A stretch of 11,142 nucleotides of DNA from positions 1-11,142 of the forward strand of contig JABLTI010000088.1 in the NCBI GenBank assembly GCA_013166835.1. The letters are read 5' to 3'. Made by a program: the position numbers and the translations under genes. A model generated the notes under the pieces. It was not told the origin of the DNA. It was given only the letters and a program-made list of their open reading frames with translations, and did no database searches. Below are positions 1 to 11,142 of this stretch, piece after piece (the stretch's first letter is position 1; every line of letters starts with the position of its first letter). This DNA comes from Promethearchaeati archaeon (GTDB lineage Archaea > Asgardarchaeota > Heimdallarchaeia > JABLTI01).

Positions 1-33
1 TATAATGATTTGTTTATTTCAAGAGATAGTAAA

Positions 34-1032
34 ATGGCGATAACAGATTTTCTTGGTGAATTAGCAGCTATTGGTGGAGCAGTCTGTTTTGGATTAGGAA
101 ATGTAATCATAAAATCTCAAGGTAGTAAAATTAAACCAATGGCAGTTAACGCAATTAGATTATCCTTTACAGCTATTTTTTATCTGATACTATTACTATC
201 AATGGGAGCATTACGTACAGCATTTTCTCTTGATTACAAAACAGGATTGCTGCTCTTCGGTGGTTCTACTCTTGGAATTATTATAGGAGATGTTGTTTTC
301 TACTATAGTCAGCAGCTAATAGGATTATCTCGAGCATACCCAATTGCAGTAAGTTACCCTTTACTAACATATCTAATTGGAATTATTTTAGGTTATGAAT
401 TCTATGATCTTTTCAGAATCCAAGGTGTAATGTTGGTTGTTTTGGGAGTATATCTAATATCTAGTTCTACTGAAAGTGAAATCGATAAGTATATCCGAAC
501 TAATGAGAATTCTTCAGTAACTTGCCACAATGTGATAGAACAAGAACATATAGATGAAACTAATTCATCATCAAGTGATCAAGTTAAGAAGAAAAAACGA
601 AACGTCATTTTAGGAATTATTGGTGCTGCTACGACTGCTGTTTGTTGGACCATTGGAACCATTATGCTTGATAGAGCTTTAACAATAGATATACCTGGTA
701 TTAATGCCAATGCATACAGAATGATTTGCATAGCTCCTTTGACACTAATCGTTTTCTTTGTAGGAAATCGAGGTAAACAGAAAAGTAAATTCACAAAGAA
801 AGGAGTAATTCTAATTTTATTAGCGGGTATAATTGGAAATACAGCAGGAAGTTTACTCTATTTATTTTCTCTCTCTTTTACAGAAGCTTCTACTACTGCA
901 GCAATTACTGCCGCATCACCATTGATTGCTTCACCACTTTCAATCTTACTATTAAAAGAAAAAATGTCATTAGTACTTGTTATGGGAACTCTACTAACGA
1001 TTTCAGGTATATGGTTAATAATTCTGTTTTAA
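34..1032 (+). CDS. EamA/DMT-family (drug/metabolite) transporter, ~10 TM
   Basis: Two 5-TM repeats with EamA-type motifs (IGLSRAYPIAVSYPLLTYLIGIILGYE; SPLIASPLSILLLKEKMS...GTLLTISGIWLI). ORF track starts at TTG 10; ATG at 34 (MAITDFLGE) is the more likely start. Confidence 0.9.
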   Translation: MAITDFLGELAAIGGAVCFGLGNVIIKSQGSKIKPMAVNAIRLSFTAIFYLILLLSMGALRTAFSLDYKTGLLLFGGSTLGIIIGDVVFYYSQQLIGLSRAYPIAVSYPLLTYLIGIILGYEFYDLFRIQGVMLVVLGVYLISSSTESEIDKYIRTNENSSVTCHNVIEQEHIDETNSSSSDQVKKKKRNVILGIIGAATTAVCWTIGTIMLDRALTIDIPGINANAYRMICIAPLTLIVFFVGNRGKQKSKFTKKGVILILLAGIIGNTAGSLLYLFSLSFTEASTTAAITAASPLIASPLSILLLKEKMSLVLVMGTLLTISGIWLIILF

Positions 1033-1202
1033 CCTTCTTTTGGATCTGCAACTAAGAAATTCATTCGTGTATATGAGCCACAAATAGAACAATTGTATTC
1101 TGAGAGAATTACAATCCCCGCTTCTGTATGATAGACTATCTTTACAGATTTACTTCCACAGAGAGGACATTTTTCTGTAACTTTGATGGAACCTTTGCTC
1201 AT
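1029..1202 (-). CDS. Small zinc-ribbon protein (57 aa, CPLCG...CSICG), ZPR1-finger-like; absent from ORF track
   Basis: Manual translation: MSKGSIKVTEKCPLCGSKSVKIVYHTEAGIVILSEYNCSICGSYTRMNFLVADPKEG*. Two CxxCG knuckles; GAGGAG (1215-1220) 12 nt upstream; stop interlocks with the EamA stop in TTAA 1029-1032. Confidence 0.8.
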   Translation of the reverse strand: MSKGSIKVTEKCPLCGSKSVKIVYHTEAGIVILSEYNCSICGSYTRMNFLVADPKEG

Positions 1203-1276
1203 CGATATATTGAACTCCTCTTATCATTGAATGTATTGTTTCTCTCTCTACCACACGTTATTTAAAAAATCCATGG

Positions 1277-1294
1277 TTTATAAACTTTATAAGC
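1277..1294. promoter_or_regulatory. Tandem TATA-like boxes in the divergent Zn-ribbon/YbjN intergenic region
   Basis: TTTATAAA-C-TTTATAAG; reads as an archaeal TATA box on either strand. Confidence 0.45.
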
Positions 1295-1444
1295 TTACCA
1301 AAAGTTCCAATTCAATGTCATAATAAAATACCTTAGATTTATACTTTTCGACAAAAAGATTGCGGGTAATTTTTACTTATTTAGAAAGGTTTTTTTGTGA
1401 TACAGTTTCTAAAGGAGTAAAGACGAACGGAGTTAAGAAATAAA

Positions 1445-1894
1445 ATGACCGATGTTCTAGAATACGTTGAAAAAGTGAAAGGTTGGTTAGATGAGCTAAA
1501 TTTGAACTATTTTGTTTCGCAAAGTGGAACTGAGATTATGCTACCATATAAAATTGATGAACGAACCTTTAATGTTAGAATTGTTGTTGCACCTGAATGG
1601 ATGCAATTATTCTGCCAGATTATGGCTGCAAATGAAGTCCCCCAAGAGCTTGTGAGCACTATTCATGCAAACCTTTTGTTAGCAAATTTCAATCTAAATG
1701 AAGTAACATATTCAATTGATCCTGAAGGTAATATTTATTCCGAAAATGATATGCCGGTAGAATCTGATCTTGTAACTTTTAAATCAGAATTAGGGGCAGT
1801 AGTTTTTGGTTACCAATACTTCTTTGAGCAGTTAGCACCAAAAATCGGTGGAGCTGTTGAAAAGATGTCCAAGGAAAAATTAGGAATAACATAG
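1445..1894 (+). CDS. YbjN-domain (type III secretion chaperone-like fold) protein
   Basis: 149 aa acidic protein with a YbjN-type pattern (WLDELNLNY...IMLPY...LLLANFNLNEVTYSIDPEGNIY); GGAG at ~1429-1432 upstream. Confidence 0.7.
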   Translation: MTDVLEYVEKVKGWLDELNLNYFVSQSGTEIMLPYKIDERTFNVRIVVAPEWMQLFCQIMAANEVPQELVSTIHANLLLANFNLNEVTYSIDPEGNIYSENDMPVESDLVTFKSELGAVVFGYQYFFEQLAPKIGGAVEKMSKEKLGIT

Positions 1895-1917
1895 GAATTC
1901 TTTACTGTATTTCCTAT
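1891..1917. terminator. Inverted repeat spanning both stop codons of convergent genes (possible bidirectional terminator)
   Basis: ATAGGAA (1891-1897) / TTCCTAT (1911-1917), followed by T-rich sequence on the + strand. Confidence 0.35.
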
Positions 1918-2903
1918 TTTATTTTCTCTATTTTCGCACCGATTCTATTTATTTTTGAGGATAGAATTAAATTGAATTCATTTTTAGGAAAAACATCTTT
2001 TACTTCTTTGATTATTTTCTTTGCTTTTTCATCCGTATCTGTTAAGGCAAAAATTGTTGGTCCAAAGGAGCTTAATCCTGATCCATAAATAGCTTGGTTT
2101 TTTCTTGTAAAATTCAGTAAATCGTGTACAATTCCTTTTTTGTAGCGATTCATCCCAAATTGTTTAAAATTGGTTTGCATTTCAGTGAGTCCTTCACCGA
2201 AAGCATGAATGTCTTTCTCAACAATCGCAGGGAGGATTTTTATCAAAATTAATCTGGATAGTTTTTCTACTTCTGCAGCAGGTATAGGGCAATTATCACT
2301 GAACAAATCGATTTCTTCTTTGTCAAATGCTCCTTGTTCAATTTTTGGAGTCAATAAAACGAACTGCCAGTTATTTGGAGGATTATGTCTAAAAATAACA
2401 GGAGGGGGTGGTGCAGCTGAAATACTTGATGGTTTAAAGGATTCTGTCTGTTTACCGGATCCAAAAGTGTGTCCCCCATCAAGGATTATACCACCTTCAG
2501 CAAAAGCAGCAACACCGATACCACTTGTTCCACCTCTTTTAACAGCATTAGCGATATCTACAACTGTAGTTTTAATTTTATGGATTTTCGCTAATATTAT
2601 TCCAACAGCCAGAGAAAATTGAGTATTAGAGCCTAATCCAACATGCTGTGGAATTTTCTTTAAAATTTCAAAATCAATATCATTAGAAGTTGTACTGAAA
2701 TATTCATCGAATCTATTGATGACAGTAATCATAGGGAGGGAAAGAGAAATTTTATTATCACTTTTCTCAGTAATCCACCCTTTTATCTCCCATCCTGGTT
2801 GTTCTAAGGCAACCCCTAAACCACCATTTATTCGACCTAATTGACCATTTAGATCAATTAAACCGAAATGTAATCGACAAGGGGTTTTCACTTGAATTTC
2901 CAA
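1914..2903 (-). CDS. mptG: Beta-ribofuranosylaminobenzene 5'-phosphate (RFAP) synthase, GHMP-kinase superfamily; methanopterin biosynthesis
   Basis: N-terminal TPCRLHFGLIDLNGQLGRINGGLGVAL, GHMP motif IPQHVGLGSNTQ, RGGTSGIG...GGIILDGGH, GLSSFGPT. Likely start TTG at 2903 with GGTG SD at 2911-2914 (ORF track extends to 2936). Confidence 0.9.
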   Translation of the reverse strand: MEIQVKTPCRLHFGLIDLNGQLGRINGGLGVALEQPGWEIKGWITEKSDNKISLSLPMITVINRFDEYFSTTSNDIDFEILKKIPQHVGLGSNTQFSLAVGIILAKIHKIKTTVVDIANAVKRGGTSGIGVAAFAEGGIILDGGHTFGSGKQTESFKPSSISAAPPPPVIFRHNPPNNWQFVLLTPKIEQGAFDKEEIDLFSDNCPIPAAEVEKLSRLILIKILPAIVEKDIHAFGEGLTEMQTNFKQFGMNRYKKGIVHDLLNFTRKNQAIYGSGLSSFGPTIFALTDTDEKAKKIIKEVKDVFPKNEFNLILSSKINRIGAKIEKIK

Positions 2904-3085
2904 ATAGACACACCAAACAAATTGTAGCAAGCACATAATATTTCTTGTTAGATATAAAAATAATTACTGTAATTTAGAAAATCAGCTAGTTAATCCCCTG
3001 TAAGATGTAAACATGACGATTGTGAAAGATTTTTTTAGTACTTATTATACTCGTTCTTTATCGAAATATGTTATTGGTGAAAAAA

Positions 3086-3727
3086 ATGGCAGAAGACAAA
3101 ATAATTTATCATGTTGCCAAGGAAAAATTAATTCCTATCAAAGAACCTACCTTTAATACTGGAGATTCTTATGTTATCGACTTGGGAAAAACCATCTGGA
3201 TTTGGATTGGAAAAGGATCACAAGTTGACGAAAAATTCATTGCAGCGAAATCAGCACAAGAATTAGACATGAAGCGAAGAGGAATACCAAAAGTTGATTC
3301 AGTCTTCGAAGGAGAAGAAGAACCTGAATTACTAAAAGCTTTAGGACCTGATTTCAAAGTTGTAGAAGGTGATACACCTTCTTTGCTCATTCATGTAGAT
3401 ACGAGATTTAAACCGCAATTCCGAATGATAAGAGTTCAACAAGTGGGCAATGATATTGACTATGAAAAAGTGAAATTCTCTAGAGATTCCTTAGATTCAA
3501 ATGATGTCTTTGTTGTAGCAGGCTTGATGGGCGAAGAAGCCATGATGATTTACACTTGGATTGGTAACAAAGCTCGACCAAAAGAAAAGTTCTTTGGAGC
3601 AATTAAATCAGATTTAATCGACAAAGAATTTAGAGAAGCACCTCAAACCATTACTATCAATGAAGGCGAAGAAACAGGCGGATTTAATTTCGTCTTTAAG
3701 GCCTATAAAGATTTTATTAATAAATGA
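3086..3727 (+). CDS. Two-domain gelsolin/villin-family actin regulator (Asgard 2DGel-like)
   Basis: Two gelsolin repeats: FNTGDSYVIDLGKTIWIWIGKGSQVDEK...VFEGEEEPELLKALG and LDSNDVFVV...IYTWIGNKARPKEK...INEGEETGGF. GGTGA SD at 3076-3080 favours ATG 3086 over 3068. Confidence 0.9.
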   Translation: MAEDKIIYHVAKEKLIPIKEPTFNTGDSYVIDLGKTIWIWIGKGSQVDEKFIAAKSAQELDMKRRGIPKVDSVFEGEEEPELLKALGPDFKVVEGDTPSLLIHVDTRFKPQFRMIRVQQVGNDIDYEKVKFSRDSLDSNDVFVVAGLMGEEAMMIYTWIGNKARPKEKFFGAIKSDLIDKEFREAPQTITINEGEETGGFNFVFKAYKDFINK

Positions 3728-3761
3728 AAAGAGTAACATCTTTTTCATTCTTTTTTCTTTT
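3723..3761 (+). terminator. Hairpin plus oligo-T terminator of the gelsolin gene
   Basis: AATGAAAAGA / TCTTTTTCATT imperfect stem overlapping the stop, then CTTTTTTCTTTT. Confidence 0.6.
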
Positions 3762-3773
3762 AAATGGGTATAG

Positions 3774-3983
3774 TACTCTGAAAGTATCTTTCAATTATTT
3801 GAACAAATAGAATTCCTTGATGATTTAGAATATGGTTCTATTACCTTAGTGGGTTCTGGTTTAGGCCTAGGATTTTATACTACAATTATTTGTGGAGGAT
3901 TAATTGCCGCAACAGCTGGAACTTTGTTAGGATTAAAGCTTTATAGCGCATTTTCTAAGAAGAAAATTAAACAAGAAGAATGA
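3774..3983 (+). pseudogene. Start-less or frameshifted small membrane-protein reading frame (TM helix plus basic tail)
   Basis: Frame reads YSESIFQLFEQIEFLDDLEYGSITLVGSGLGLGFYTTIICGGLIAATAGTLLGLKLYSAFSKKKIKQEE*, bounded upstream by TAG 3771-3773. No in-frame ATG (GTG at 3849 possible). Followed by its own terminator. Confidence 0.55.
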
Positions 3984-3990
3984 AATTTCT

Positions 3991-4025
3991 ATAGCAAAAT
4001 TATTGCTATCTTTTTTCTTTTTTTT
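3991..4025 (+). terminator. Hairpin plus oligo-T terminator
   Basis: ATAGCAA-AATTA-TTGCTAT (3991-4009) then TTTTTTCTTTTTTTT (4011-4025). Confidence 0.6.
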
Positions 4026-4101
4026 AACGAAAACAAATTAATTTGAAAATATTGATTTTCTGTGAATAAAAAAAATAAACTGAAAAGAGGAAAAAATTAA
4101 A

Positions 4102-4677
4102 TCAGAATTCTTCCTCTAATGCACCTACTTCCTTGAGTATTTCATAAGTTTTCCTTGTGGATTCACTAACGAATTCTTCTTTTTTAGCACCAGTGCAAAC
4201 AAAAGCACCACTCTGGAATAATAAGAGAACTGTTTTTGGTTCTCTGATTCGATATATTAAACCTGGAAATTGTTCTGGTTCATACATGCTACCTTCAAGC
4301 ATAATTGAAGCAAGTTCTAGATTTATAATGGCATTGATGTTCCCAGATGCTACAATATTTTGAACAGTAACTTGTGGTTTCCCAGTAATCTTAGCTCCAG
4401 CAGCTTTGAGAACTTTTACAATTTCATCTGCAGCTACATGAAGCATTTCTGCACTTTTCGCTCCTGTAATAACCATTTTACCGGAAGCAAAAATAAGAGA
4501 ACTTACTTTTGGTTTTGGGATTTTTAAGACAAGTCCTGGAAATTTCTCTGGTTCGTAAGATACAAAGTATTCTGGTTTTTCACCTAGTCGATCAGCAAGT
4601 GCATATAAGTCAATTCTAGAAGTTTCTACGCTTCCTGATGCTACACAGTTTTGGATCTCATAATCTATTTTAACCAT
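4102..4677 (-). CDS. tbp: TATA-box-binding protein (archaeal TBP)
   Basis: Two TBP repeats: IQNCVASG...YEPEKFPGLV...LIFASGKMVITGAKS and VQNIVASG...YEPEQFPGLIYR...LLFQSGAFVCTGAK; short acidic tail LEEEF; GGAG SD at 4687-4690. Confidence 0.97.
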   Translation of the reverse strand: MVKIDYEIQNCVASGSVETSRIDLYALADRLGEKPEYFVSYEPEKFPGLVLKIPKPKVSSLIFASGKMVITGAKSAEMLHVAADEIVKVLKAAGAKITGKPQVTVQNIVASGNINAIINLELASIMLEGSMYEPEQFPGLIYRIREPKTVLLLFQSGAFVCTGAKKEEFVSESTRKTYEILKEVGALEEEF

Positions 4678-4716
4678 TGGTCTAATCTCCTGATTAAGGG
4701 ACTAAAGATTGATTCA

Positions 4717-4790
4717 TTTATAAGCTAGATGTCCTTTATAAAGGGTTATTTATAAATGAACCCTTATTAATGGTTTATAAAGGGTTTTAT
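4717..4790. promoter_or_regulatory. Cluster of TATA boxes with direct and inverted repeats upstream of tbp
   Basis: TTTATAAG 4717-4724, TTTATAAA at 4735, 4749 and 4774, TTATTAA 4764-4770; 13-bp direct repeat TTTATAAAGGGTT (4735-4747, 4774-4786); AAGGGTT/AACCCTT inverted repeat (4741-4747, 4759-4765). Confidence 0.7.
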
Positions 4791-4842
4791 GTGGTATTTT
4801 TAGGCTGACAAAAACAACGAAAATAGTTTTTCAGTTCCTTTT

Positions 4843-4858
4843 GGAAATCCTTATAAAT
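4843..4858 (+). promoter_or_regulatory. Candidate BRE/TATA promoter for the ileS leader transcript
   Basis: Purine-rich GGAAAT followed by CCTTATAAAT; standard archaeal spacing predicts a TSS near 4878-4882. Confidence 0.55.
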
Positions 4859-4906
4859 TTCACTTTCTTCAGTTAGAATGATGATATTATATGCACAGGT
4901 GACAAA

Positions 4907-4939
4907 ATGAGGGGTCATGAAATTATATCCCGGACATAA
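4907..4939 (+). CDS. Candidate ileS leader peptide MRGHEIISRT
   Basis: Strong SD AGGTGA (4897-4902) 4 nt before ATG; tandem Ile codons ATT ATA; lies upstream of ileS. Confidence 0.3.
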   Translation: MRGHEIISRT

Positions 4940-4974
4940 ACTCTTATTCTGGAAATCACCTAGTGTAGACTATA

Positions 4975-4994
4975 ATCACTTCTCGACTAATTTT
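4975..4994. repeat. 20-nt dispersed repeat, copy 1
   Basis: ATCACTTCTCGACTAATTTT; 19/20 identical to 10775-10794. Confidence 0.75.
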
Positions 4995-5063
4995 AGGAGT
5001 CTAAATTTAAAATGAGGAATCACTTTATTAGAAACTAAAAATAATGATAGGAAACAAGAGCTC

Positions 5064-8000
5064 ATGAAAGAGCAGAACAATCAACTCTTCCCAGATGTAA
5101 CTTCAAGCTTAGATTTACTTGCGCTTGAATTAGATGTACTTGAATTCTGGGAACAAAACAAAGTTTTTGAGAAGCTAGTTGAGAAAAACAGTCAATCCAC
5201 AAAGAATTATTCTTTCATAGATGGTCCTATAACTGCCAATAATCCTATGGGATTACATCATGCTTGGGGTCGCTCATTAAAAGATCTTATACAAAGATAC
5301 TGGGCTATGAAGGGTTATGAACAAAGATTTCAAAACGGATTTGATTGTCAAGGACTTTGGGTAGAAGTTGAAGTTGAAAAAGATCTTGGACTGAATTCTA
5401 AGAAAGCTATAGAAGAATTTGGTTTGGAGAATTTTTCAAATAAATGCAAGGAACGAATTGATCGCTATTCGAGTCTTATAACAAAGCAATCAAAAAGACT
5501 CGGACAATTCATGGATTGGGATAATTCATACTATACTCATACTGACACTAACATTTCGTACATTTGGTATTTTCTCAAAAAGTGCCATGAGAATGGTTGG
5601 ATAATCAAAGGTAATTTTCCGATGCCTTGGTGTACCAGATGTGGAACATCATTATCCCAACATGAACAACACGATTCATACAAGGAAATGCAACATACAG
5701 CGGTCTTTACTAAATTTCCATTGATATCTAGACAAAAAACAGAACAAGAAAAGAGCTATTTACTTGTATGGACAACTACACCTTGGACATTAACTGCGAA
5801 TACAGCTGTAGCGGTTCATCCTGATCTAACTTATTGCAAAGTTATGAAGGATAACGAAATATTATATTTAGTTGAATCAAAGCTTTCACTATTGAAAGAT
5901 GATTATGAAGTTCTGGATACTTTTCCAGGGAAAGAGCTCATTGGCTTGAAATACGAATCACCATTCAACCATCTCTTAGCTCAAAAAGGAGTTAAGCATA
6001 GAGTGATTGAATGGATAGAAGTTTCAGGTGAAGAAGGAACAGGATTTGTTCATATTGCTCCTGGCTGTGGAGCTGAAGATTATGAATTGAGTAAAATACA
6101 CAAGCTCGCTATAATCTCACCTATAGATGACTATGGAATCTTCCAAAAAGAATCTGATGAGTTTCAAGGATTATTTGTTACAGAAACTTCTGAGAAAGTT
6201 GTCGAATCATTAAGAAAAAGAAATCTTTTGCTTAAAACAGAAGAATTTACTCATAGATATCCAACGTGTTGGAGATGCCATGAAGAACTAGTATTTAGAC
6301 TAGTGCAAGAATGGTTCATCGATTCTGAACACATAAGACCTCTATTGAAAGAAGCGACAACTAAGGTAGAATGGGTTCCAAGTTTCTATGGGAAACGCAT
6401 GATAGATTGGTTAAACAATATGGGTAATTGGTGTATCTCGAGAAAGAGATACTGGGGATTACCTTTGCCTTTCTTTGAATGCAAAAGCTGTGGTGAACTC
6501 ACTGTTATCGGTACTAAAGAAGAATTATTCGAGAAAGCAGTTGATGGCTTGGATAATTTGAAAGAATTACACAGACCTTGGATTGATGAAGTGAAAATAA
6601 AATGTCCGAAATGCAACAAAATTGTTTCTAAAGTAACCGAAGTCGGTGATTGTTGGTTAGATGCCGGAATCATCCCATTTTCAACCTTGAAGTACTTAGA
6701 AGATCCTGAATATTGGAATAAGTGGTTTCCAGCAGAAGCAGTATGTGAAATGCGAGAACAAATAAGACTATGGTTTTATTCATTACTCTTCATGAGTGTC
6801 ACACTGAAAGGTGAAACACCATACAAGCGGGTTGTTGTTCATGAAAAAGTTCATGATAAAGATGGTAGAGCTATGCATAGAAGTTGGGGAAACGCAATTT
6901 GGTTCGCAGAAGCAGCTGATAAAGTTGGTGCTGAAATCATACGCTGGGCTTCAGCAAAGCAACAACTCTCACAAACGTTGAATTTTGGTTACCATTTAGA
7001 AGATGAACTTAAGCCTTTCTTCCTTACTATATGGAATATATATTCATTCTTCTCTACTTTCGCAAATTTAGATCAGTTCAAACCATATGACAAACAAATT
7101 GGTACTTTGAAGTCACAACCTTATCTTGACAAATGGTTGCTATCGAAATTAAATGGATTAGTAAAGCAAGTTCGAAAAGATCTGGACAAAATGAATTTCA
7201 AAAATGCTACTGTAGAAATTGAACAATTTGTTGATCAATTATCAACTTGGTTTTTACGTAGAAGTCGCAGAAGATTTTGGAAACATGAAAACAGCGAGGA
7301 AAAACTAAGTGGGTACTATGCACTATATGAAACATTACTAAAACTCAGTAAAATTTTAGCCCCATTTGTACCCTTTTTCAGTGAAAAACTATATCAGAAT
7401 TTGACCAAGTTCAATAATACTGAAATGCCAGCAAGTGTCCATCTTTGCGCTTATCCGAAATTTATGAAATCAAATTATAACAAAGAGCTAAATGAGAAAA
7501 TGGATGTAGTTCTTCAAGTTGTTAAACTTGGAAGATCTGCAAGAAGTGCATCAAATTTTAGATTAAGACAACCTCTCTCAGAAGTAATTGTTTGGAGCAA
7601 AGATAAAAAACTTGAAAATGCTCTGAGTGAATTTAAAAATGAAATACAATCTGAACTCAATGTCAAGAATCTTCGTTTTGCTAAAAATCCTGAGAAGTTG
7701 TTAGAGTTTAAACTTAAGTTAAATTATCAAGTTCTCGGTCCTAAACTCAGAGGGGAAATAACCTTCTTGGAAGATAAAATAAAGGAAATTGATCAGAAAA
7801 TAGTTATCGAAGCTTACTATAAGAAAGATCAAGTTTTAGAAGTAGTATTGGATCCAAGCAAGAAACCTTTGAAATTAAGACTGCATGATGACTTGATCCT
7901 TGAAGCTATACCACTAGGTGAACGCTCTATAGCAGTAAACGAAAAATTCGCTGTAGCAATTGATACAAAAATAACAGAAGATCTATTGCTAGAAGGTTTT

Positions 8001-8249
8001 GCTCGAGATATAGTACGTCATATACAAAATCTGAGGAAAGAAGAAGGATTACAGGTTACTGATAAAATAACAATAAGCTATAAGACCAAAGGAAAACTTG
8101 AACAGGCATTCACGAAATTTACTGACTATATTTGCACAGAAACATTGACCACAACTTTAACCAGAAAAGAAAAATTAACCAAAGGTGAAAGATTAACAAT
8201 TCAAGGTGAAGAGTTAATCCTATCTTTATCTAAGAATAAACAAAAATAA
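5064..8249 (+). CDS. ileS: Isoleucine--tRNA ligase (IleRS type 2-like, non-canonical GLHH / AMHRS motifs)
   Basis: DGPITAN, GFDCQGL, VWTTTPWTL editing motif, GTGFVHIAPG, HRYPTCWRC, WCISRKRYWG, RLRQPL, EGFARDIVRHIQNLRK; 1061 aa; no C-terminal IleRS1 Zn finger. Confidence 0.95.
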   Translation: MKEQNNQLFPDVTSSLDLLALELDVLEFWEQNKVFEKLVEKNSQSTKNYSFIDGPITANNPMGLHHAWGRSLKDLIQRYWAMKGYEQRFQNGFDCQGLWVEVEVEKDLGLNSKKAIEEFGLENFSNKCKERIDRYSSLITKQSKRLGQFMDWDNSYYTHTDTNISYIWYFLKKCHENGWIIKGNFPMPWCTRCGTSLSQHEQHDSYKEMQHTAVFTKFPLISRQKTEQEKSYLLVWTTTPWTLTANTAVAVHPDLTYCKVMKDNEILYLVESKLSLLKDDYEVLDTFPGKELIGLKYESPFNHLLAQKGVKHRVIEWIEVSGEEGTGFVHIAPGCGAEDYELSKIHKLAIISPIDDYGIFQKESDEFQGLFVTETSEKVVESLRKRNLLLKTEEFTHRYPTCWRCHEELVFRLVQEWFIDSEHIRPLLKEATTKVEWVPSFYGKRMIDWLNNMGNWCISRKRYWGLPLPFFECKSCGELTVIGTKEELFEKAVDGLDNLKELHRPWIDEVKIKCPKCNKIVSKVTEVGDCWLDAGIIPFSTLKYLEDPEYWNKWFPAEAVCEMREQIRLWFYSLLFMSVTLKGETPYKRVVVHEKVHDKDGRAMHRSWGNAIWFAEAADKVGAEIIRWASAKQQLSQTLNFGYHLEDELKPFFLTIWNIYSFFSTFANLDQFKPYDKQIGTLKSQPYLDKWLLSKLNGLVKQVRKDLDKMNFKNATVEIEQFVDQLSTWFLRRSRRRFWKHENSEEKLSGYYALYETLLKLSKILAPFVPFFSEKLYQNLTKFNNTEMPASVHLCAYPKFMKSNYNKELNEKMDVVLQVVKLGRSARSASNFRLRQPLSEVIVWSKDKKLENALSEFKNEIQSELNVKNLRFAKNPEKLLEFKLKLNYQVLGPKLRGEITFLEDKIKEIDQKIVIEAYYKKDQVLEVVLDPSKKPLKLRLHDDLILEAIPLGERSIAVNEKFAVAIDTKITEDLLLEGFARDIVRHIQNLRKEEGLQVTDKITISYKTKGKLEQAFTKFTDYICTETLTTTLTRKEKLTKGERLTIQGEELILSLSKNKQK

Positions 8250-8259
8250 AATTCCTCAT

Positions 8260-8300
8260 TGATAATTTACACCCGTAAATTATCATTAATTTCTTTTTTT
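8260..8300 (+). terminator. Hairpin plus oligo-T terminator of ileS (possibly bidirectional)
   Basis: Perfect 11-bp stem TGATAATTTAC-ACCC-GTAAATTATCA (8260-8285), then TTAATTTCTTTTTTT. Confidence 0.7.
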
Positions 8301-8313
8301 ATTCAATCATTTT

Positions 8314-8847
8314 TTAGAAAATTAAAAAGACAACAGTAGATATTATTGCCATACAAATACCTGCTATGAAATAAGTTAATGAATGAACAAAAGCAAAACG
8401 CAAACTTCTATCTTTTGATTCGCCAACGCTTCGTTTAGATCTTTGTTCTACAACTACTGAACGTCTGGGAACAGATAAACCTGAAAATAATAATAACAAA
8501 CCACTTTCACCAAACATTATCCATGAAAGAAAACTATCATCACTTCCTACGTTGTTTAATCCGTAATCCGTTGAAAAATAAATAATCAAGTTAACCATCA
8601 TTAAGAACCCAAGAACAATAGCAATTGCTTGGCAAATACAAGCAAAATCAAAACGATACTCTACGTAATCTTGTCTTAGAACTGTATGTTCCTCTCTGAA
8701 AGCTTCTCGGTATATTTCCTTTTTTGCTTCAGAGGGCGTACGATTTTTATAGGATTTGCGAAGTAGTTGTGAATGGGAAATTGTATCTTCATCACTTTTT
8801 TTGGAGATAGTTTTTCGTACAGCATCTAAATCCATGTCTTCGCTCAT
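8314..8847 (-). CDS. Uncharacterised 3-TM membrane protein with charged N-terminal region (paralog of the upstream gene)
   Basis: Three hydrophobic segments; likely start ATG 8847 (MSEDMDL) with AGGT upstream, which avoids overlap with the neighbour. Confidence 0.75.
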   Translation of the reverse strand: MSEDMDLDAVRKTISKKSDEDTISHSQLLRKSYKNRTPSEAKKEIYREAFREEHTVLRQDYVEYRFDFACICQAIAIVLGFLMMVNLIIYFSTDYGLNNVGSDDSFLSWIMFGESGLLLLFSGLSVPRRSVVVEQRSKRSVGESKDRSLRFAFVHSLTYFIAGICMAIISTVVFLIF

Positions 8848-8924
8848 TGGATAGAACCAACCTATAATATATAGAATTGCTTTCTCTAAAAATATATTTT
8901 CATTAGAACTATATATTATAGTGG

Positions 8925-9404
8925 TTATAGTGATTGAATAAGCCAAGCAAGAAACGATGCAAGACCAAGAAGCAATCCACTTAAGATGTAGGTATAGGCA
9001 CTACCTATAGCTATTTTTGTATCTGCACCTGTAATACTTTCACCTTTAGTAAATCTCTTCTTTATTCTGTCTATTGTAAAAGATTGACGAACAGTTCCAA
9101 TACAGCCACCAAAAATCAAGAGTAATCCTGTTTCAATAAGAAAAACCCATGATAAAAAAAAGAAAACTAATACTTCATCATATTGTCTTCCTAGAATCCA
9201 AAAAATAAGAAGAGTTATTCCAACTACAACAAAAGAAATTACAATAGCTACAATTATTACTCGAGACCATTTAAGCTTAACCTCTAGTGATTCATATGGT
9301 TCTTTTGGAATCTCAGAATCACTGATTTGTTCGATGAATTCATCTGGATCTTCACTAACTTCAGATGTAGTTTGTTGATCGGGTAATTGGGACAAGTCAA
9401 ACAA
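8925..9404 (-). CDS. Uncharacterised 3-TM membrane protein with acidic N-terminus
   Basis: Acidic N-terminal ~40 aa followed by three TM helices; start TTG 9404 or TTG 9395. Confidence 0.8.
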   Translation of the reverse strand: MFDLSQLPDQQTTSEVSEDPDEFIEQISDSEIPKEPYESLEVKLKWSRVIIVAIVISFVVVGITLLIFWILGRQYDEVLVFFFLSWVFLIETGLLLIFGGCIGTVRQSFTIDRIKKRFTKGESITGADTKIAIGSAYTYILSGLLLGLASFLAWLIQSL

Positions 9405-9454
9405 CTCAGGTTATTTTTCAGTGTGAATTTACTAAAATATTGTGAAGAATCTTA

Positions 9455-9490
9455 ATAAAAGAAAAATTTTGGGTAGCTAATAAGCTACTC
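9455..9490 (-). terminator. Hairpin plus T-rich terminator of the TM2-domain gene
   Basis: GTAGCT-AATA-AGCTAC (9473-9488); minus strand continues AAAATTTTTCTTTTATT. Confidence 0.5.
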
Positions 9491-9493
9491 AAA

Positions 9494-10768
9494 TCACTTC
9501 CAATTGAAAACTTGCTTATCATCACTATCATAGAAGCTACCGGTAATTATAGCGACAAGATCAATGAGATAACCTATACCTAGGAATCCAAATGTACAAG
9601 TGAAAACAATTCCAGTCCCAATTTTGCCGACTATATAACGTTGTAGACCAACAAAACCAATAAGTCCTAGGAATAGCAGTAAAAGTCTACTATGGGGTGA
9701 ATACTCTTTTTCTTCTTCTATTTCTTCTACACCTTTCATCTTAGACCAAATAGCACCAAGCTCTTCTCTTAAATCAAAAAATGTTTCTTTTATATATTTA
9801 CCAGGTATTGATAAAACATAATATTTCAATTTTGTGAGAGACCATACAACTGGTGGCAAGACGACTTTTTGAAATGCGAAGAACAGAACTATACAGACTA
9901 ATAGAAGAATTGCAAATATTAATGACCAGTAAGTCTCACCAAATGCTCTCGCATATTCATAATCGTAAATTATTGTTCCTGAAACTCCTCCATAGAATTC
10001 TTCGTGCCAAATCAAAAGATGATAGTGATTTTCTACTTCAGGATCTGGATTTGGATCCTTTAAAGTTTCAAATTCCAAGGTGATATTGAAGGAATCTTCC
10101 TCACCCTCATAAACACTATAAAGATTTGGTCTTTCATTTGGGTCATCTATATAGCTGTCAAATTCATCTTGTGTCATGATATAACAACTAACACTTGCAT
10201 TTACATTGAAAATCTGAACAGTGTCTTGAGTAGTTCTGTCACTTTCAAGAATTTTTTGATAATATGGTTGATAGATAGTTTCAGCTAATCCTTCAGTCCA
10301 GATGAAGTTCCCATTAACTACTTCCCCTTCTGAGTAAATTATAAGCTTGGGGCTAATTGTGGAAGTAAACTCAAATCGAAGATAACCATCACAGATATCA
10401 TGTCTGAAATAAACTGTGGGGGGATCACCTATGAAATCACGTTCGTAATCCAAATAATCCACAGTATCAAGAATGAAAATTTCTACTCGTTTATTATCTT
10501 CAGTCCAAATTTCAAAGAAATAAGAATATGAGTCTGTGTGTGCTGTACCAACAGCTGCTTCTAGTGGTAAACCAAAGACATAATCATTTAAATTATTTAA
10601 AGTAAAGTCCATTTCAGCTATAACTTCAGGTTTCGATGCTTCAATATAGAAATCAGAATAGATTAATTGATAGGTTTCTCCTTTTGTAGCAAGAAAAGGA
10701 GTTATGAGCAAACTCAGAATTATTACCGATAACATTAAACTTGACTTTCTGACTTTGAGATTATTCAT
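9494..10768 (-). CDS. Membrane protein: signal peptide, acidic ectodomain, TM helix and C-terminal TM2 domain
   Basis: N-terminal K/R plus hydrophobic signal; TM YWSLIFAILLLVCIVLFFAF; TM2 motif LGLIGFVGLQRYIVGKIGTGIVFTCTFGFLGIGYLIDLVAIITGSFYD. GAAGTGAT SD favours ATG 10768 over the track start 10813. Confidence 0.85.
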   Translation of the reverse strand: MNNLKVRKSSLMLSVIILSLLITPFLATKGETYQLIYSDFYIEASKPEVIAEMDFTLNNLNDYVFGLPLEAAVGTAHTDSYSYFFEIWTEDNKRVEIFILDTVDYLDYERDFIGDPPTVYFRHDICDGYLRFEFTSTISPKLIIYSEGEVVNGNFIWTEGLAETIYQPYYQKILESDRTTQDTVQIFNVNASVSCYIMTQDEFDSYIDDPNERPNLYSVYEGEEDSFNITLEFETLKDPNPDPEVENHYHLLIWHEEFYGGVSGTIIYDYEYARAFGETYWSLIFAILLLVCIVLFFAFQKVVLPPVVWSLTKLKYYVLSIPGKYIKETFFDLREELGAIWSKMKGVEEIEEEKEYSPHSRLLLLFLGLIGFVGLQRYIVGKIGTGIVFTCTFGFLGIGYLIDLVAIITGSFYDSDDKQVFNWK

Positions 10769-10774
10769 TTCGAT

Positions 10775-10794
10775 ATCACTTCTCGACTGATTTT
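10775..10794. repeat. 20-nt dispersed repeat, copy 2 (covers the SD of the TM2 gene)
   Basis: ATCACTTCTCGACTGATTTT; minus strand AAAATCAGTCGAGAAGTGAT ends 6 nt before ATG 10768. Confidence 0.75.
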
Positions 10795-10844
10795 TTGAAC
10801 TACGATTTATCAAAGACTAATGATTATCAATTTTACTTCTGTCT

Positions 10845-10858
10845 TTTATATATTTTCG
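10845..10858 (-). promoter_or_regulatory. BRE-TATA promoter of the TM2-domain gene
   Basis: Minus strand reads CGAAAA-TATATAAA, about 77 nt upstream of the ATG. Confidence 0.55.
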
Positions 10859-10960
10859 TGGTCTTGAAATTAAGTATGAAACTTGGTTTTAAAGGATTTT
10901 CCTCAGAATGTTATTTGAAATAATGATTAAGAAGCAAGTACAAAAACAACTGCTCGGAAC

Positions 10961-10998
10961 AAAAAAAAGAAAAAAGAAATAAGCCGTGTGGCTTATTT
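10961..10998 (-). terminator. Hairpin plus oligo-T terminator overlapping the stop of the last gene
   Basis: AAATAAGCC-GTGT-GGCTTATTT perfect 9-bp stem (10977-10998); A-tract 10961-10975 is a U-tract on the minus strand. Confidence 0.7.
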
Positions 10999-11142
10999 TC
11001 TTCTCTTTAAGAAGAAGACTTGACTTGCACCAGCAAGAGCTAGTATTCCTATTACAACGTATAGACCAATACCTGTAATTGATGTTTCTGGATAAACGAA
11101 ACCAGCATCTTCCATCTTTTGTTTGGCGAGGTCAATACTGTA
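10993..11142 (-). CDS. 3' end of a C-terminally anchored surface protein, probably an ABC-transporter family-5 (peptide/nickel) solute-binding protein (partial)
   Basis: Manual translation YSIDLAKQKMEDAGFVYPETSITGIGLYVVIGILALAGASQVFFLKRRK*. YxxxxAKxxMExAG resembles the DppA/OppA YDxEKAKxLLxEAG motif; TM helix plus KRRK tail. Runs off the window edge. Confidence 0.65.
   Translation of the reverse strand, partial: YSIDLAKQKMEDAGFVYPETSITGIGLYVVIGILALAGASQVFFLKRRK

Follow-up and report, generated by a model that had tools for sequence, protein, structure and literature searches.

Paired isoleucine-codon reading frames upstream of an Asgard archaeal ileS: a candidate +1 frameshift relay for sensing charged tRNA

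How does an archaeon adjust the amount of an aminoacyl-tRNA synthetase to the supply of its amino acid? In archaea this matching is largely unknown, and the leader of an isoleucyl-tRNA synthetase (IleRS) gene from a Heimdall-group Asgard archaeon raises the question in a specific form. The window that we analyzed is a stretch of 11,142 nucleotides (nt; contig JABLTI010000088.1, positions 1 to 11,142) that carries ileS. A 386-nt spacer, with a divergent TBP gene on one side and ileS on the other, houses the leader. A preliminary description had read in it four short upstream open reading frames (uORF0 to uORF3), a TATA-like box (TTATAAAT), the ribosome-binding sites (RBSs) AGGTGA and AGGAG, and ATGA overlaps joining uORF0 to uORF1 and uORF3 to ileS, and all of these elements lie where it had placed them (Table 1). 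Our analysis suggests that, in this leader, ribosomes sense charged tRNA-Ile in two stages by +1 frameshifting, in the manner of a prfB-like "hungry-codon" relay. We give this reading a probability of about 0.6. In what follows, L-numbers denote loci in related genomes, g1, g2 and g4 genera and f1 a family (anonymised labels), and G000 the genome to which the window belongs.

The argument starts with conservation. An ortholog of the window IleRS is held by 20 of 41 related genomes (56-94% identity over the first 300 residues), and the motif common to uORF1 and uORF2 was found in 19 of 20 orthologous loci, a spread of six families. Two copies are present in 17 loci, a single one in L018 and L019, and none in L017, whose genome has an additional, broken IleRS2 locus (L032) with the motif. 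Each copy comprises an RBS (GGTGA, GGAGTGA or GGAG), a start codon, an optional (A/T)GG codon, GAT or AAT, two variable codons, ATT, and a stop codon that falls 0-7 codons past ATT. The start is mostly ATG, with GTG in copy 2 of L011 and in L019 and TTG in copy 2 of L020, and codon 2 is present in some copies and missing from others, a 3-nt indel. An RBS of the uORF1 type (GGTGA or GGAGTGA) precedes 18 of the 19 first copies, the remaining locus, L016, having GGAGAGTATGA instead. The patterns that gave 19 of 20 include ATT, so that its invariance is circular in that count; in a pattern-free check, a MAFFT alignment of 11 leaders, ATT was invariant in both copies.

Searches with other patterns led to the same genes. 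A pattern ending before the Ile codon gave 14 matches in the 41 genomes versus 1 control match, and these comprised 10 ileS leaders (in each of which codon 6 is ATT), one hisS leader and three chance matches inside open reading frames (ORFs). An exact 19-base pattern occurs at 14 places in 185,579 species genomes; 13 of them sit 141-318 nt 5' of an IleRS2 gene, the other being a chance match in a bacterium. When the RBS was left out of the pattern, 400 genomes of the phylum yielded 24 matches versus 4 in the control, 21 of the 24 (in 20 genomes) falling within the class of the window. Five further loci from this phylum-wide scan were inspected and proved to be four chance matches inside ORFs and one more ileS2 leader. 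A search for related loci with an IleRS alignment returned mostly bacterial and DPANN type-2 IleRS genes and no new leaders. The ileS leader itself is identical, with no indel, in contigs from three public DNA runs, and a 94%-like strain from a fourth run shows no indel across 4878-5067; some of the runs compared may be the source of the assembly.

The remaining two ORFs of the leader are not conserved in this way. uORF0 is full length in just two of the four nearest genomes and elsewhere absent or cut to 3-4 codons, and it is probably outside the device. L004 lacks the ATG of uORF3, and L002, L003 and the strain in run X8 lack its Ile codon. The expectation that the uORFs would be conserved in relatives was thus borne out for uORF1 and uORF2, whereas uORF0 and uORF3 turned out to be lineage-specific. 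Neither the proposed chain of four ORFs linked by ATGA nor its last step, in which uORF3 would be coupled to ileS, is supported, and the same holds for a leaderless uORF0; what is conserved is a link through the +1 frame, which the preliminary description had not noticed. A role for AUA and its agmatidine-dependent decoding had also been put forward, yet the invariant codon is AUU and AUA codons are not kept outside genera g1 and g2. The comparison with shuffled DNA, made on the window alone, is only suggestive: with 2000 dinucleotide shuffles of 4878-5067, the five ATG-initiated ORFs of 4-12 codons compare with a mean of 2.4 (P = 0.07), and all five contain Ile, against a shuffle mean of 1.3 (P = 0.008). 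The central idea of the preliminary description, that Ile-codon uORFs may let the ribosome report the supply of Ile-tRNA, gains support from the kept RBS, start codon, ATT and early stop, and from the sister ORFs with His, Leu or Pro codons presented below.

What might a ribosome do at such an ORF when Ile-tRNA is short? An indication came from the reading frames that follow the sensor codon, which we compared in 42 cassettes from non-redundant loci (26 ileS, 7 hisS, 3 leuS and 6 proS2). Past the sensor codon, frame 0 stays open for a median of 2 codons, the +1 frame for 46 and the +2 frame for 11.5, with the +1 frame the longest of the three in 40 of the 42 cassettes. In 11 of them it is the frame of the synthetase itself, where openness is trivial if the gene starts at offset +10. 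In the other 31 it is a connecting frame, which is the longest in 29. Connecting frames measure 19-99 codons, and their indels keep the frame. They end on the next start codon (as ATGA at 5012-5015 in the window and as TTGA, GTGA or ATGAxTGA elsewhere), directly before it or at most 12 nt before it (e.g. TAAATG), at most 13 nt past it (16 nt in L002), or in frame with the next sensor ORF (L013, L014, L015 and L077). Among 14 non-redundant first ileS copies, the connecting frame is open for 19-63 codons in all 14.

In the window, the +1 frame of uORF1 stops on the ATG of uORF2, whose own +1 frame is that of ileS. The ileS ATG sits inside uORF2 at offset +10 in L005, L006, L008 and L009. Elsewhere the codon at this offset is GTG (L011 and L020), GTT (L007) or ATC (L010); it is ACT in the window and either ACT or GCT across the window and its three closest relatives, where, despite the non-start codon at +10, the frame stays open down to the annotated ileS ATG at 5064. 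Genus g4 (L012-L016) offers a further arrangement: a frame of 39-46 codons, +1 to uORF2 and conserved at the protein level, leads from uORF2 to ileS and ends 4-8 nt past the ileS start codon. It has GTA, GCG, ACG or GCC at +10 and no ATG, GTG or TTG at its head, and it may correspond to a small protein made by frameshifted ribosomes alone. Taken locus by locus, the shuffle probabilities for the open frames are modest (0.003-0.27, with 0.058 and 0.14 for the two window segments) and are not independent across relatives. The openness of the +1 frame speaks for a mechanism other than simple stalling.

A frame that has to be translated during a shortage of the cognate tRNA is expected to be poor in the cognate residue, and for the +1 frames this prediction held. 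Ile accounts for 29 of 692 codons in connecting +1 ORFs of ileS leaders (4.2% versus a baseline of 9.3%, P about 3e-7), Leu for 6 of 279 in those of leuS (2.2% versus 9.7%, P about 5e-7), His for 1 of 265 (0.4% versus 1.7%) and Pro for 1 of 103 (1.0% versus 3.8%) in the corresponding sets, the baseline being the long ORFs of G000, with L047 and synthetase frames left out of the counts and the loci being related to one another.

We also aligned the 42 cassettes on the sensor codon. This brought out a block, GG(G/A)AT, at -11 to -7, with G at -11 in 35 cassettes, G at -10 in 36, G at -9 in 29, A at -8 in 40 and T at -7 in 38. Because this block, which resembles a Shine-Dalgarno (SD) sequence, is shared, an M-(R/W)-(D/N) "peptide" seems to be conserved across synthetase leaders. 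The codon that precedes the sensor follows a rule in 42 of 42 cassettes: it is NAA or TTT before ATT, the TTT-ATT case being that of window uORF2 and L007, and NTT before sensors starting with C (CAC, CTT, CCG and CCA). A slip by one base at these positions yields AAA, TTC or TTA, with two or three base pairs retained; re-pairing mostly involves two of the three pairs and is perfect just for AAA-A and TTT-C. As far as the logic of the sequences goes, the codon that would be slow fits the gene downstream in each case, with Ile for ileS, His for hisS, Leu for leuS and Pro for proS2.

These sister cassettes were found before three other synthetase genes. In family f1, an RBS and an M-W-D/E-x-x-His (CAC) ORF precede hisS (Pfam tRNA-synt_His, 1.7e-37) in 11 of 11 loci, one of which, L047, has a premature TAA at codon 4; by eye, nothing similar was seen in 14 hisS loci from other families. 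In the genus of the window, an M-R-N-x-V-Leu-Leu ORF precedes leuS in four of the four genomes examined, leuS being absent from the G000 assembly. A second ProRS paralog (proS2) occurs in three of five genomes of the genus, G000 included, and all three loci have an F-Pro-x-stop ORF; a second Pro ORF overlaps the proS2 start at offset +10. Among the genomes examined, up to five of the genus, no sensor ORF was found before ileS1, proS1 or the canonical trpS (L240). None was seen either, in up to five genomes, before the presumed valS, metS, thrS, glyS and argS and three genes of the Asp/Asn/Lys class, all of which were assigned by size and N-terminus rather than by family; the Glu, Phe, Ala, Cys and Ser synthetases stood outside this survey. 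A scan of G000 for ORFs of the M(R/W)(D/E) type retrieved only the hisS leader, and the ileS leader just under a looser pattern, the rest being chance-like.

Individual sister leaders have the following layouts. The hisS leader of G000 (G000:C19; L050/L093) contains, about 141 nt 5' of hisS, a 6-codon ORF in which a final His is followed by the stop, and a 47-codon +1 frame from offset +10 that stops on the hisS ATG as ATGA. In the leuS leaders L110-L113, a +1 frame of 83-100 codons, with several Cys and just 2-3 Leu, starts at sensor offset +10 and stops 1-5 nt past the leuS ATG. The proS2 leader of G000 (G000:C206; L078) has a first Pro ORF that ends F-P-N-stop, with the stop region in the 5' arm of a 10-bp hairpin, and a +1 frame that ends 2 nt before the second Pro ORF. 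The latter starts with TTG, and its +1 frame is the proS2 frame.

On odds slightly better than even, we would extend the proposal to Heimdall-group Asgard archaea more generally: they would possess modular "hungry-codon" +1 frameshift cassettes that serve as amino-acid-specific sensors of tRNA charging and are relayed by stop/start overlap into the synthetase gene. Each cassette would be made of an RBS, a start codon, an SD-like block, a slippery codon and one cognate sense codon.

Two further leaders of G000 appear to follow a different, classic design. That of trpS2 (G000:C213; L230), 174 nt 5' of the gene and also found in L236 and L237, is an ORF of 16 codons, two of which, close to the end, encode Trp. 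After this ORF comes CCTCCTAGA, which is perfectly complementary to the downstream TCTAGGAGG, an RBS, and partly complementary to CATCTAGA inside the ORF; the resulting 9-bp pairing hides the RBS, and there is no open +1 frame. The tyrS leader (G000:C128; L235), 137 nt 5' of tyrS and also found in L232 and L234, thus in three of five genomes of the genus, has an ORF of 8-9 codons with a TTG start and three Tyr codons, as well as several conserved complementary stretches.

The sequence of events that we infer for ileS is the following. When Ile-tRNA is plentiful, ribosomes on uORF1 would read ATT at 4922-4924 and stop at 4937-4939, those on uORF2 would stop at 5036-5038, and little IleRS would be made. 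When it is scarce, the A site would stay empty at ATT, and the peptidyl-tRNA on GAA (uORF1) or TTT (uORF2) would slip by +1, aided by the SD-like GG(G/A)AT block 7-11 nt upstream. A ribosome that slipped on uORF1 would read 4920-5012, crossing an element that may mask the uORF2 RBS, stop at the TGA at 5013-5015 and restart on the uORF2 ATG at 5012. A second slip, at TTT-ATT (5024-5029), would bring it into the ileS frame. The response would be sharper with two sensors acting in series, and the ATG at 5064, which has no clear RBS, may supply basal expression.

The putative masking element was examined in a consensus fold of 11 leaders (RNAalifold), which contains two short helices only and no covariation. 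Kept in it are a GGGAT/ATCCC hairpin over the first slip site, which is absent from genus g4, and a predicted CCTAG/TTAGG pairing of the CACCTAGTG element with the uORF2 RBS. Since L011 reads the CACCTAGTG element in another frame, it is conserved as nucleotides. The pairing would tie uORF2 to ribosomes arriving in the connecting frame.

We considered several other ways to account for this leader. A ribosome stalled at an Ile codon could reshape the pairing of the RNA and so free an RBS or prevent early termination, without any frameshift; the model of the preliminary description, put in general terms, is of this kind. Conserved, translated ORFs with a cognate codon would fit such control equally well, the same genome has the classic trpS2 leader with its 16 codons, two Trp and 9-bp pairing, and CCTAG/TTAGG pairing is predicted over the uORF2 RBS. 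Yet stalling leaves unexplained why 40 of 42 cassettes keep a +1 frame, often devoid of a start codon, open as far as the next start, why that frame avoids the cognate residue and why the pre-sensor codon is always NAA, NTT or TTT. Furthermore, stalling on uORF2 would place the ribosome over the ileS start that relatives have at +10, so that expression would fall instead of rising, no covarying pair was found, and a search of 4678-5200 for a hairpin followed by a T-tract gave no terminator-like site, which is a weak test as archaeal termination signals differ. We regard control by stalling as unlikely. The +1 frames could instead be ordinary ORFs, or ileS, begun at offset +10, with which the sensor ORF merely competes for initiation. 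ATG or GTG indeed occupies this offset in 8 of 19 first and 6 of 17 second ileS copies, 4 of 4 leuS and 5 of 11 hisS leaders, and the GAGG of codon 2 could act as an RBS for such a start. In other lineages, however, the codon at +10 is AAG, ACG, GCG, GTC, GTA, GCC, ACT, GCT, GTT, ATC, GAC, AAC, ATT or TAT, with the frame open regardless, and window uORF2, with ACT, belongs to this group; in addition, stalling would then repress the gene during starvation. Competition between starts is in our view quite improbable.

The two other explanations do without a function for the ORFs. One holds that the leader is an RNA element bound by a protein or a tRNA, such as a T-box-like structure or a tRNA-mimicking operator for IleRS. 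It would account for a core, GGATC..GAAATT, that is present twice per leader and is kept even at third-codon positions (GAT, never GAC; ATT, never ATC or ATA). On the other hand, scanning the entire window against Rfam at E <= 1 gave just a chance match to an unrelated small RNA family (2896-2965) and left the leader unmatched, covariation is lacking, and the GGGAT/ATCCC hairpin is missing from genus g4. Nor does an RNA element explain the ATG/GTG/TTG changes, the 3-nt indel, the stops or the +1 frame, and we judge it very unlikely. T-box-like, tRNA-mimic and anti-SD-mimic ideas had been dropped because start-codon variation and the frame evidence favour translation. The other explanation is that short ORFs arose by chance in an AT-rich spacer and have no function. 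For the window alone the statistics are marginal, as seen from the P value of 0.07 for ORF number, and uORF0 and uORF3 do look chance-like. But uORF1 and uORF2 are kept across six families, and 13 of the 14 matches in the whole genome collection precede IleRS2, which makes chance hardly credible.

Several observations weigh against a frameshift relay. Re-pairing after the slip is imperfect, with a mismatch at the first position when GAA becomes AAA and at the wobble position when TTT becomes TTA. The 3' end of 16S rRNA was not found in the assembly, and the SD-like block stays putative. The +1 frame fails to be the longest in copy 1 of L010 and in copy 1 of L076, the connecting frame of L002 stops beyond the uORF2 ATG owing to a 1-nt difference, and L047 has early stops in both frames of its hisS leader. 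Ile codons in connecting ORFs are lowered, not zero. Ordinary initiation could enter the +1 frame through the ATG or GTG at +10 in many lineages, and in the window the ATG at 4917 could also start the connecting frame. The window leader folds only modestly better than its shuffles (-36.9 kcal/mol; z = -1.73), and the 13 consensus pairs show no compensatory change across the 11 leaders. Finally, the P values ignore relatedness, the baselines are from G000 only, and several sets of cassettes were chosen by motif patterns.

How would a relay of this kind compare with known devices? The bacterial prfB plan consists of AGGGGG, 3 nt, CUU and a slow UGA. The ileS leader resembles it in having a short frame 0, a putatively slow A-site codon tied to the function of the gene itself, an SD-like block upstream and a product in the +1 frame. 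A P-site codon of the NUU type, which would slip by +1, may be a further likeness. Unlike in prfB, where a release factor reads a stop codon, the sensor would be a sense codon read by an aminoacyl-tRNA; it stands in upstream mini-ORFs, two in series through a stop/start overlap, and the host is an archaeon. Leader-peptide attenuation in bacteria is exemplified by trpL, hisL and pheM-pheST. There, as in our proposal, the ribosome gauges charged tRNA at cognate codons in a short translated leader, and the matching gene is expressed more strongly. The ileS leader differs in having no terminator/antiterminator pair and one or two cognate codons only, and its proposed output is a change of frame followed by reinitiation, not transcriptional read-through. 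A T-box likewise subjects a synthetase to the charging of its tRNA through a codon-like specifier, but here there is no Rfam match, the specifier lies in a translated ORF with RBS, start and stop, and no tRNA-binding structure is evident. To our knowledge, T-boxes and classic attenuators are bacterial. The proposed passage from one sensor to the next is akin to termination-reinitiation coupling, as the TGA at 5013-5015 overlaps the ATG at 5012-5014 in the window and relatives have ATGA, TTGA, GTGA, TAAATG or gaps of at most 12 nt.

Frameshifts that link a sensor to an effector are represented by prfB and antizyme in the relevant passages of a 2016 review (PMC5009743). The same passages describe the ermC leader, in which a ketolide-induced frameshift sends ribosomes into the spacer, opens a structure and permits downstream initiation (PMC5009743). 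A frameshift in the leader ORF would take ribosomes into the spacer in a new frame here too, but the trigger in ermC, a bacterial system, is an antibiotic in the exit tunnel, while here it would be an empty A site. Frameshifting in pheL is judged incidental there, and the natural use of hungry-codon shifts unclear (PMC5009743). The E. coli work of Gallant and Lindsley on hungry-codon frameshifting is cited in both PMC8211752 and PMC5009743. In it, as in our proposal, the P-site tRNA slips at defined positions once a single aminoacyl-tRNA runs short; the effect is known as a laboratory phenomenon, whereas the leader would be a selected regulatory device. For Archaea, the portions consulted of a 2021 review of recoding report a single case of -1 frameshifting, and no +1 case was found in them (PMC8211752). 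No published description of a leader like this one was found in the full-text literature, with subscription journals and supplements outside reach.

The synthetase that the leader precedes is one of two IleRS paralogs. The second occurs at 36-41% identity in nearly all of the related genomes, G000 included (G000:C129:3658-5556), and its gene, ileS1, has a short leader without a sensor ORF. The window IleRS scores high against the NCBIfam models MupA and MupB, yet under both cut-offs, and is type-2-like. Its first 300 residues share 50-64% identity with IleRS sequences from DPANN archaea and many bacteria (Chloroflexota, Planctomycetota and others), which suggests a horizontal origin.

The coordinates of the leader and of the genes that flank it are collected in Table 1. 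A box resembling TTATAAAT was seen by eye at the matching place in 11 leaders of genera g1 and g2. Between the start of the TBP gene and the ileS promoter, at 4717-4790, lie four other TATA-like boxes (TTTATAAG, CTTTATAAAGGG, TTATTTATAAATGAACCC and TTTATAAAGGG), accompanied by an inverted repeat, AAGGGTT/AACCCTT; judged by eye, boxes and repeat are kept in the closest relatives. They may serve as an autoregulatory decoy, or as a multi-TATA promoter from which the TBP gene is transcribed. Farther away, a gene at 3068-3727 encodes two gelsolin repeats (PF00626, 5.5e-24), which, as a eukaryote-like cytoskeleton signature, are typical of Asgard archaea. A tRNA scan of the window gave nothing relevant.

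Table 1. Positions of the ileS leader elements and flanking genes in the window
Feature	Position	Strand or orientation	Basis or conservation
TBP gene	4677-4102	divergent from ileS	Pfam TBP, 4.7e-53
TATA-like box TTATAAAT, putative promoter of the ileS leader	4851-4858	+	read from sequence
uORF0	4878-4910	+	present, not conserved
RBS of uORF1, AGGTGA, 4 nt 5' of ATG	4897-4902	+	conserved place
uORF1, first sensor ORF, 10 codons	4907-4939	+	19 of 20 loci
SD-like GAGGGG within uORF1	4909-4914	+	sequence
Proposed slip site of uORF1, GAA-ATT	4919-4924	+	sequence
Connecting +1 frame, 31 sense codons, entered at the uORF1 slip site	4920-5015	+	TGA 5013-5015 overlaps uORF2 ATG 5012-5014
Conserved element holding CACCTAGTG	4956-4973	+	alignment and RNAalifold, 11 leaders
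RBS of uORF2, AGGAG	4995-4999	+	GGAG in 10 of 11 aligned leaders; GGGG in L002
uORF2, second sensor ORF, 8 codons	5012-5038	+	conserved
SD-like GAGGAA within uORF2	5014-5019	+	sequence
Proposed slip site of uORF2, TTT-ATT	5024-5029	+	sequence
+1 frame of uORF2, open, in frame with ileS	5025-5063	+	homologous to the N-terminal IleRS extension of relatives
uORF3	5044-5067	+	present, not conserved; its DNA is IleRS coding sequence in relatives
ileS, second (type-2-like) IleRS paralog	5064-8249	+	Pfam PF00133, PF08264, PF19302 (Anticodon_1, DUF5915); NCBIfam TIGR00392, 743.6 bits (cut-off 621.4)

If the proposal is true, annotation pipelines would miss the start-less +1 frames and the N-terminally extended synthetases of these archaea. 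The specifier codon would be swappable, as the Ile, His, Leu and Pro cassettes suggest, and exchanging it should change the amino acid that is sensed. The leaders would then constitute the first natural case in which limitation of an aminoacyl-tRNA at a sense codon is read out by programmed +1 frameshifting. They would represent a selected use of hungry-codon frameshifting and provide archaea with a counterpart to T-boxes and attenuators.

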